From Yuukianura sp. NJ FZ-2021 (Eukaryota): 64,000 nucleotides of DNA. The stretch is taken from contig CM102286.1 in the NCBI GenBank assembly GCA_046563655.1, positions 15,066,001 through 15,130,000 of the forward strand. The letters run 5' to 3'. The position numbers were made by a program, and so were the translations under genes. The notes under the pieces are model-generated. The model did not search any database, was not told where the DNA came from, and saw nothing but the letters and a program-made list of their open reading frames with translations. Positions 36,775 through 38,467 of this stretch are shown piece by piece. Within the stretch, counting starts at the first letter, position 1, and every line of letters begins with the position of its first letter.

Positions 36775-38467
36775 ATGTCTGAAGGCGGTAGATTCCAATG
36801 GGAGACTGCTGGGTCCGTCGACCAGAAGATGCAAGCTTTGTATGAGAAGGTCAAGGCCCGTGACCCCCATCAGGTCGAGTTTCTCCAAGCATTTGAAGAA
36901 GTGCTCCACTCTCTCAAGCCAGTTTTTGAAAAGGACATCAAGTACTTGGCAGTTCTGGAGACGATCGTGGAGCCCGAGCGGGTCATCACTTTCCGAGTGC
37001 CATGGGTGGATGACCGGGGAATCCAACGGGTCAACCGCGGGTACAGGGTCCAGTTCTCTTCTGCCATTGGTCCATACAAGGGCGGACTCCGCCTCCACCC
37101 CACAGTCAACTTGAGTGTCATCAAGTTCTTGGGATTCGAACAGATCTTCAAGAATGCTCTGACCGGACTCCCGATGGGCGGGGGCAAGGGCGGGTCGGAC
37201 TTTGACCCCAAGGGCAAATCAGACAACGAAATCATGGCCTTCTGCACGGTAAAAACACTAAAAATTGATTACGGTTCCATTTTTTGACAATTTGGAAAAT
37301 AGAGCCAGATAGCCCAAGGGTTAGAGTGCTTCTCGGGTAGAAGCGCGACGTGGGTTCGAATCCCACTCGGTTCCTTATTTTTTTTATACTCTCGTTCTTT
37401 ATTTCTCAAGCCAGGTGACCCCAGAGCGTCACAGAATTTGAAATTTTCAAAATTTTGACTTTTTTTTTAAATTTTGAACCTTAGAGTTTCATGACCTCGT
37501 TGTACCGCCACATTGGCCAAAACTGCGACGTGCCAGCTGGAGACATTGGAGTCGGCGGTCGTGAGATTGGATTTCTGTTTGGGCAGTACAAGCGCCTCAC
37601 TGGACAATTTGAAGGCGTTTTGACCGGAAAACATACGAGATGGGGAGGTTCCCTCATCCGCCCAGAAGCGACTGGCTATGGAGCAGTGTACTTTGCCCAG
37701 AACTGGTGCCATGACAACAATGTGCCCATGAAGGGAGCTCGCTGTGTCGTCAGTGGATCAGGAAATGTTGCCCAGTACACCGTAGAAAAACTACTGGAAC
37801 TGGGAGCCATTCCACTCACGTTCTCCGATTCTACTGGCTATGTGTATGAACCCAATGGATTCACCACTGAAAAACTACACAAAATCATGGACCTCAAGAA
37901 CGTCAAGCGAGGACGCATCTCAGAGTACTTGAAGGTAACAAAATCTCAAGAATGCAGAAAAATCTGTTTCAAAATTTTGATTTTTTTTTTCAAAATTTGT
38001 GTCTTCTTCAGGAATCCACTACAGCTCAGTTCTTCGCAGACAAGAAACCGTGGGAAGTGAAGAACGTTGTGTTGGCCTTCCCATCTGCCACTCAAAATGA
38101 GATTGACGGCGCCGATGCCAAGGTTTTGGCTGCGAATGGGTGTAAATTGGTGGTTGAAGGAGCAAATATGCCATCGACCCAAGAGGCCATCAAGGTCTAC
38201 GAGTCGACTGGAATTGTGCTGTGTCCAGGAAAAGCAGCGAATGCTGGTGGAGTAGCCGTGAGTGGACTGGAGATGAGCCAGAACTCTTCTCGTCTGAGCT
38301 GGACACGAGAAGAAGTTGACGCAAGACTGAAAGAGATCATGCGCAACATCTACGTCTCTTGCAAGGAGGCTGCTGCTGCCTATGGCATCAACAACATCCA
38401 GCATGGAGCCAACATCGCTGGATTCCTCAAAGTCGCTGATTCGGTCATCGACCAAGGCTGTGTCTAA
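36775..38467 (+). CDS. gdhA: NADP-specific glutamate dehydrogenase (microbial GdhA type), 3 exons
   Basis: [117 protein letters not shown]; two GT-AG introns; AATAAA downstream. Confidence 0.93.
37302..37373 (+). pseudogene. tRNA-like element (pseudo-tRNA or tRNA-derived SINE) in gdhA intron 1
   Basis: Cloverleaf-like: A-box-like tagcccaagggttagag, stem gcttc/gaagc, T-arm gtggg-ttcgaat-cccac, imperfect acceptor stem, T-run downstream. Confidence 0.65.

Follow-up and report, generated by a model that had tools for sequence, protein, structure and literature searches.

A spliced GdhA-type glutamate dehydrogenase gene, probably of eukaryote-microbe origin, in the genome of a springtail-like hexapod

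Here we describe a gene for a small glutamate dehydrogenase of the GdhA type that lies on the forward strand (positions 36775-38467) of a 64,000-nucleotide stretch of the Yuukianura sp. NJ FZ-2021 assembly (GCA_046563655.1, contig CM102286.1, positions 15,066,001 to 15,130,000; the whole stretch is referred to below as the window). It is an integrated and spliced gene of an animal genome that evolves under purifying selection, and the best explanation for it, to which we assign a probability of roughly 0.6, is that of a functional and expressed gene of a springtail-like hexapod that descends from a foreign source, a eukaryotic microbe. Taken by itself, such an origin, with entry into arthropods long ago, is the probable one. 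The GdhA-type family is textbook knowledge, foreign genes in springtails are well known, and orthologs from flies have already been deposited under the right name. A full-text search of main texts retrieved no paper on this gene in springtails or flies (supplementary gene lists on horizontal gene transfer may contain it), nor did we find an assimilative-type glutamate dehydrogenase of hexapods, or its eukaryotic affinity, in print in the main texts searched.

An earlier note on this DNA had placed the gene at exactly these coordinates and had described two spliceosomal introns. The start codon (ATG) is at 36775, the stop codon (TAA) ends at 38467, and the spliced coding frame of 1380 nt (459 codons plus stop) is distributed over three exons. 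Both coding introns are of phase 0 with GT..AG ends, and their G+C content (37% for the intron of 236 nt and 25% for that of 77 nt) compares with 52% in the coding sequence. Contigs of four runs were aligned to window positions 33000-41000: X3 and X7 are metatranscriptomes from two studies, while X1 (labelled 'organism A') and X5 (labelled 'organism B') are DNA runs. The features of the gene are as follows.

36629-36673, forward strand: 3' end of a non-coding first exon (5' untranslated region, UTR), from RNA contig X3 record 9, with 45 letters before the joint 36673>36751
36674-36750, forward strand: 5' UTR intron of 77 nt, GT..AG, its joint present in a single X3 RNA contig (depth 12.2, side 45)
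36751-36774, forward strand: 5' UTR part of the second exon, read from the sequence, with an in-frame TAG at 36763-36765 in the translated spliced leader
36775-37248, forward strand: coding exon 1 (158 codons) with the N-terminal tail, the dimerisation domain and the GGGKGG stretch; Pfam ELFV_dehydrog_N, E 5.4e-36
37249-37484, forward strand: intron of 236 nt, phase 0, GT..AG, absent from X3 and X7 RNA contigs and retained in DNA pieces X5 records 21 and 22
37485-37934, forward strand: coding exon 2 (150 codons) with the end of the N-domain and the start of the dinucleotide-binding domain including GSGNVA; Pfam E 9e-28, PDB alignment to 3r3j E 2.5e-64
37935-38011, forward strand: intron of 77 nt, phase 0, GT..AG, removed in X3 and X7 RNA contigs
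38012-38467, forward strand: coding exon 3 (151 codons plus TAA), encoding the C-terminal helix and what remains of the coenzyme domain; E 2.2e-51 to Pfam ELFV_dehydrog (positions 98-241 of 241)
38520-38525, forward strand: AATAAA, a candidate polyadenylation signal that may be the one used (sequence only; RNA contigs reach 38481)

RNA contigs of both X3 and X7 are joined at 37247>37484 and 37932>38010, matching the predicted coding introns exactly, and one X7 contig of 1092 nt spans all three coding exons. The joined form was not seen in the DNA runs X1 and X5, both of which contain pieces crossing exon/intron borders; in X5, the pieces 37041-37371 and 37354-37700 cross both borders of the 236-nt intron. 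The two introns of the earlier note are therefore spliced in RNA of two studies, but a third, in the 5' UTR, had been missed; its joint was not seen in X7, X1 or X5. Variants in the coding exons point to constraint on the protein: the listing gives 19 sites in the coding exons (234 more over the 8 kb lie outside it), 18 of which are synonymous, and 18 of the 19 fall on third codon positions. On the basis that 18/19 listed coding variants are synonymous, we conclude that the gene is under purifying selection. As a side observation, X5 contigs of depth ~100-125 cover the dehydrogenase gene and positions 38929-40053 at ~95-98% likeness, and the side of the upstream neighbour DBR1 is covered in X5 only by contigs of depth 2-5; X5 is probably a related species of which only conserved parts pass the 90% threshold.

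All three exons match the Pfam domains ELFV_dehydrog_N and/or ELFV_dehydrog (E 5e-36, 9e-28 and 2e-51), and both the domain order (ELFV_dehydrog_N, then ELFV_dehydrog) and the total length of 459 aa are as expected for a GdhA-type enzyme (~450 residues). Searches were conducted with single exons, or with an 88%-identical proxy (P0006), in place of the spliced protein. Against PRK09414, the NCBIfam equivalog 'NADP-specific glutamate dehydrogenase' (NADP, nicotinamide adenine dinucleotide phosphate), the exons score 245.7, 218.7 and 199.7 bits, a simple sum of 664 bits; the cut-off of 536 applies to a whole protein and is out of reach for single exons, and the full-length relative P0006, 88% identical to the window protein, scores 686.9 bits. 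The GdhA-type motifs named in the earlier note are conserved as well: GGGKGG in exon 1, whose lysine is presumably the catalytic one, aligns with the solved chains 2bma and 3r3j and is invariant in 27/27 rows of our alignment A1, and GSGNVA in exon 2, a GxGxxA dinucleotide-binding fingerprint, aligns to 3r3j and is likewise invariant in A1. These two chains, named NADP+ glutamate dehydrogenase and taken by us to be Plasmodium falciparum enzymes, are the best solved relatives (exon 1, E 4.6e-68 and 1e-66; exon 2, E 3.1e-56 and 2.5e-64 for 2bma and 3r3j, respectively) and align end to end with the window exons. A Plasmodium row in our collection (P0027) has a long N-terminal extension, whereas the window protein has none. 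Bacterial GdhA (PRK09414; solved chains 4fcc and 3sbo) resembles the window protein in family, domain order and length; by contrast, the window gene has spliceosomal introns and a 13-residue N-terminal tail, and it branches with eukaryotic enzymes.

The mitochondrial glutamate dehydrogenase of animals (GLUD1 type) belongs to the same ELFV superfamily and catalyses the same reaction, but the window protein has neither antenna nor leader. The antenna of GLUD1-type enzymes is a ~48-residue insertion in the coenzyme domain. Exons 2 and 3 of the window gene cover ELFV_dehydrog positions 1-92 and 98-241 (of 241) without a large insertion, 146 residues of exon 3 filling positions 98-241 with no room for an antenna, and on this ground the antenna is absent, as had been claimed. 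Exons 1 and 2 matched 17 solved sequences at E<=1e-20, none of them a chain named as GLUD1-type. With regard to targeting, the spliced leader carries an in-frame TAG 4 codons 5' of the ATG, and thus no upstream extension can encode a presequence; the first 30 residues contain 5 acidic (D+E) and 5 basic (K+R) residues. Judged from these features and without a predictor, the protein has no N-terminal mitochondrial presequence, which agrees with the earlier note.

What the enzyme does can be predicted by analogy. Because it has no targeting leader, the protein would stay in the cytosol, and it is probably a cytosolic NADP(H) enzyme. Its nearest named relatives suggest a preference for NADP(H) and hexameric assembly, the protein presumably assembling like its solved relatives, and it would interconvert 2-oxoglutarate plus ammonium and glutamate in an NADP(H)-dependent manner. 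Since the antenna is absent, established knowledge of this element leads us not to expect allostery by guanosine triphosphate (GTP) or adenosine diphosphate. The enzyme could offer a GTP-insensitive route to fix or recycle ammonia and, in the reverse direction, a source of NADPH; family membership would likewise fit cytosolic ammonia assimilation.

To place the gene among its relatives, exon 1 was searched against longer proteins in a collection that does not include the window's own protein, and the best 120 of 7997 scored candidates were listed. The top matches in this list are unnamed contigs of ~1.5 kb with up to 87.8% identity over the full length, followed by proteins of three flies, Pseudolycoriella hygida and Bradysia odoriphaga (Sciaridae) and Condylostylus longicornis (Dolichopodidae), encoded on contigs of 155.8 Mb, 925 kb and 31 kb. 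Lower matches comprise a EukProt transcript (P0022), Bryopsis, Plasmodium, Palpitomonas, Prasinoderma, Scenedesmus, Oikopleura dioica and many Firmicutes. Named metazoans account for 4/120 of these best matches (the three flies and Oikopleura), and no named springtail, cnidarian, annelid, fungus or other arthropod occurs in the best 120 of 7997, although an Orchesella proteome is in the collection. Over the full length, the window protein is ~64% identical to a Plasmodium protein and 55-57% identical to Firmicute enzymes. The fly proteins, deposited as 'NADP-specific glutamate dehydrogenase', are orthologs that share the length class and the N-terminal GRF.W tail with the window protein; they differ in having flies as hosts rather than a springtail-like hexapod, and the Pseudolycoriella model alone has a 16-residue insertion. 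This insertion (P0009, A1 columns 234-249) lies between DVP and AGDIG, is absent from the 26 other rows and probably represents an intron that the gene model failed to remove, at a site without an intron in the window.

A quick LG+C20 tree was computed from 73 rows, namely the window protein and 72/120 of the best matches, after dropping two rows shorter than 400 aa and P0070-P0120 apart from five that are named or widely held. In this tree the window protein, the three flies and 19 unnamed environmental transcripts form a starred clade of 23 rows (97), to which P0022 is sister (96), and these 24 rows together with a Plasmodium group and a Prasinoderma group make up a starred set of 32 rows (96). 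All bacterial rows are in the opposite half of the tree, along with green algae, Palpitomonas and Oikopleura. A careful tree of 16 rows, restricted to named rows, has the same branching order, and it rejects a single clade of all named animal copies including Oikopleura (approximately unbiased (AU) test, p 0.00017). The nearest non-animal relatives, as placed by these sequences, are single-celled eukaryotes and not bacteria. The GRF.W tail is common to the arthropod clade and P0022 in A1. According to a table in PMC10304595, the accession prefix of P0022 is that of the eugregarine Ancora sagittata; this label is not proof of origin, because such transcriptomes can carry reads of the host (a polychaete) or other foreign reads. 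A scan of metagenome contigs for intron-bearing relatives yielded no member of the arthropod clade among the 80 loci listed out of 592 matching stretches (53-64% identical), and was probably swamped by the conserved pattern GFEQIFKN.

The earlier note had proposed a domesticated transfer from a microbe, and had named homologs that are widespread in metazoans and follow the species tree as the finding that would speak against it. Integration, splicing and purifying selection bear out domestication, but the gene is neither private to this genome nor a recent capture: orthologs 74-83% identical lie on chromosome-scale contigs of sciarid and dolichopodid flies, and the 19 unnamed transcripts fall in the same starred clade. 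Nor are the nearest outgroups bacterial; they are eukaryotic (the gregarine-labelled transcript, Plasmodium and a prasinophyte). Homologs are not widespread among named metazoans (4/120), and the named animals do not form one clade (p 0.00017), but vertical descent within hexapods was not rejected (p-AU 0.19), as detailed next.

We compared the gene with the arthropod species tree on the basis of full-length identities. The window protein is 82.8% identical to that of Pseudolycoriella hygida, 82.1% to that of Bradysia odoriphaga and 73.9% to that of Condylostylus longicornis, while the two sciarid genera are 84.1% identical to each other and 72-74% identical to Condylostylus. All four are about equally distant from the outgroup P0022 (66.8-70.1%), which gives no sign of a rate artefact. 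In the 16-row tree, the grouping of the window with the sciarids is starred (99/97) and monophyly of the flies is rejected at p 0.022. Conversely, when fly monophyly was tested with 73 rows, leaving the unnamed rows free and holding the window and the named non-flies outside, it cost 18.2 log-likelihood units and was not rejected (p-AU 0.19); the group to be tested had been chosen after a tree had been seen. The conflict of this gene with the arthropod species tree is thus equivocal as judged from these sequences, and transfer between springtails and fungus gnats is live but unproven.

The identity of the host was addressed through one of the neighbouring genes, DBR1, which ends about 1.7 kb upstream of the dehydrogenase gene; on the downstream side, the next gene begins some 1.4 kb away.

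32938-35113, forward strand: DBR1, lariat debranching enzyme, upstream host gene (tblastn, homologues, trees)
39839-40450, forward strand: possible RNase PH-type exosome subunit, downstream (sub-threshold Pfam matches, RNase_PH E 0.077 and RNase_PH_C E 0.045)
41108-41628, forward strand: mitochondrial pyruvate carrier gene (Pfam MPC E 3.4e-28)

Of the two neighbours invoked in the earlier note, DBR1 was confirmed; for the downstream gene, named RRP46 there, the Pfam matches are the two sub-threshold ones listed above. The window further contains an srGAP-like RhoGAP gene, an alpha/beta hydrolase, a gypsy-type retroelement, cytochrome P450 genes, a gene resembling wax ester synthase/diacylglycerol acyltransferase (WS/DGAT), BBS7 and a Cys-loop channel, and reads as ordinary animal DNA. 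By tblastn, exon 1 of DBR1 is 83% identical to Orchesella cincta, compared to 52-55% for an amphipod, a butterfly and a mosquito. The DBR1 rows of the window and Orchesella are sisters in a quick tree of 60 rows (SH-aLRT, the Shimodaira-Hasegawa-like approximate likelihood-ratio test, 99) and in a careful tree of 27 rows (100/99), and forcing the window DBR1 together with three fly rows costs 70.6 log-likelihood units and is rejected (p-AU 1.6e-58). The window and Orchesella proteins are only 62-63% identical. On the basis of this single gene and a single springtail sequence, we place the host as a springtail-like hexapod distant from Orchesella.

We then considered how the gene came to reside in this genome. 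That an assembler joined a microbial gene to animal DNA has nothing in its favour beyond the unusual family and is so improbable as to be negligible, since the introns have host splice signals and the host's repeat motif, pieces from two DNA runs with different organism labels cross exon/intron borders, the nearest host genes are no more than 1.7 kb away on the upstream side and some 1.4 kb away on the downstream side, and fly orthologs reside on contigs of 155.8 Mb and 925 kb; the earlier note, too, had deemed contamination unlikely, and the host-type introns, the border-crossing pieces and the flanking host genes bear this out. Only slightly more credible, and still very improbable, is a recent capture from bacteria, from which the family is best known and whose Firmicute members are 55-57% identical over the full length: the bacterial rows all lie in the opposite half of the tree, the gene has three spliceosomal introns, and orthologs 74-88% identical are found in other animals and environmental transcripts. 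A more substantial alternative, though an unlikely one, is a vertical relict, i.e. an ancestral eukaryotic or metazoan GdhA-type gene kept in springtails, some flies and perhaps annelids and cnidarians and lost nearly everywhere else. It would accommodate the wholly eukaryotic set of nearest relatives, the tail shared by the arthropod clade and P0022, the possible annelid-host origin of P0022, the failure to reject fly monophyly with 73 rows (p 0.19), and the assimilative enzyme of Cnidaria given in the available text of Guedes et al. 2011 (PMC3287585). On the other hand, it would require very many independent losses, named metazoans make up 4/120 best matches with no cnidarian, fungus, annelid or other arthropod among them, one clade of named animals is rejected (p 0.00017), and the closest outgroups are apicomplexan and prasinophyte rows rather than opisthokonts. 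Spread from arthropod to arthropod after a single foreign entry, with the gene moving between the springtail lineage and sciarid flies, is a minority possibility that deserves somewhat more credence. The window is nearly as close to the sciarids (82.8/82.1%) as these are to each other (84.1%), with Condylostylus further off (72-74% to the sciarids) and outgroup distances alike, and the 16-row tree groups window and sciarids (99/97) at the expense of fly monophyly (p 0.022); terpene synthases and some P450s provide a precedent in the accessible part of Chen et al. 2024 (PMC11665903). Yet the 73-row test with unnamed rows free gave p 0.19, the choice of the tested clade followed inspection of a tree, and hidden paralogy would yield the same pattern.

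The reading we prefer, an old entry from a eukaryotic microbe into arthropods, is favoured by three host-type introns, a G+C content at third codon positions (GC3) modestly above that of the neighbours, and the many diverged members of the clade. GC3 is 0.55-0.70 in the dehydrogenase gene versus 0.40-0.58 in neighbouring genes; we rejected composition as a mark of foreign origin, the excess being so modest. The introns of the gene contain a short A/T motif, as introns elsewhere in the window commonly do, which agrees with a long residence. Under this scenario, the donor would have been an apicomplexan or gregarine-like or an algal eukaryote rather than a bacterium, the entry would be ancient, the host-type introns would have been gained since, and the gene would be shared with some soil-dwelling flies. 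Several points weigh against this reading. The sister row P0022, which comes from a parasite transcriptome, could derive from an annelid host or another contaminant. The trees consist of the best exon-1 matches, without fungal and cnidarian GdhA-type enzymes and without a set root, and the host placement draws on a single gene and a single springtail sequence. Vertical descent within hexapods with many losses fits, because fly monophyly was not rejected (p-AU 0.19), and the older vertical relict weighed above is a further, if unlikely, alternative. Metatranscriptome contigs show presence and splicing, not the level or tissue of expression, and coenzyme specificity, oligomeric state, compartment and reaction direction are predictions from sequence and relatives. 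An even more specific scenario is speculative and rather unlikely as a whole: a gregarine-like apicomplexan gut parasite gave a cytosolic NADP glutamate dehydrogenase to its arthropod host, from which the gene spread among soil arthropods (springtails, fungus gnats and long-legged flies).

The A/T-rich motif merits a remark of its own. Copies resembling TTTCAAAATTTTGA are repeated in introns and spacers (37445-37468, 37967-37990, 36683-36703, 48342-48370 and others), and the motif gave many false 'joints' in DNA contigs.

In the available text of Guedes et al. 2011 (PMC3287585), Cnidaria are the only animals said to have retained an assimilative glutamate dehydrogenase, all others being described as dependent on dietary amino nitrogen. 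A spliced, selected GdhA-type gene in the genome of a springtail-like hexapod, and likewise in three species of fly, would qualify this Cnidaria-only view as that text presents it, and it suggests that animals whose diet of detritus and fungi is poor in nitrogen recycle ammonia or supply NADPH in this way. For the question of how animals acquire genes, the eukaryotic affinity of this one is of interest. The host set also overlaps that of other 'alien' genes of fungus gnats described in the accessible part of PMC11665903. There, Chen et al. 2024 document canonical terpene synthases, a family otherwise absent from insects, for Sciaridae, springtails and mites and propose a mite-to-sciarid transfer, and P450 genes of Bradysia coprophila are hypothesised to come from springtails or mites. 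Like the dehydrogenase gene, the terpene synthases occur in an unusual combination of hosts, namely soil microarthropods together with fungus gnats, but they are a different enzyme, and arthropod transfer of the dehydrogenase gene is not established (p 0.022 versus p 0.19). If a gregarine donor and spread among arthropods were true, the gene would join terpene synthases and some P450s as one more family that marks a gene-sharing network of soil microarthropods, and feeders on detritus and fungi would have gained an ammonia assimilation said to be absent in animals outside Cnidaria.

The 236-nt intron of the dehydrogenase gene holds a tRNA-like element (37302-37374, forward strand) that ARAGORN calls as tRNA-Pro with anticodon GGG. 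Rfam gave no tRNA match to it at E<=0.1, only an 18-bit partial match of the tmRNA type on the T-arm, and no second copy was found within the window. We rejected a true tRNA gene, which is without Rfam support, and we also rejected a repeat family as the cause of the strong rise in X1 depth over this intron: a 35-nt T-arm core (37349-37383) is common to many other contigs in the aligned runs, and sharing of the T-arm with real tRNAs may explain the rise. Two possibilities for this sequence are a degenerate tRNA gene and an intron-nested element of tRNA origin.

Elsewhere in the window, the gypsy-type retroelement (12895-20266, reverse strand) comprises a gag-like frame with a zinc knuckle (445 aa), a pol frame (1342 aa) and, at the place of env, a third frame of 686 aa that has no Pfam match; the G+C skew is strongly shifted over 12-20 kb of the window. 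The WS/DGAT-like frame (50475-51548, reverse strand) is a single exon of 357 aa with a weak match, below the cut-off (E 3.3e-4), to the bacterial/plant wax ester synthase/DGAT catalytic domain; its closest Atlas cluster is arthropod (242 members), followed by bacterial clusters, and the frame may represent a further arthropod gene that descends from a foreign source. Finally, a very divergent P450-like gene is located at 52553-53943 (forward strand), of which only the haem-binding end matches Pfam (E 0.0014) and for which 8 relatives were found.

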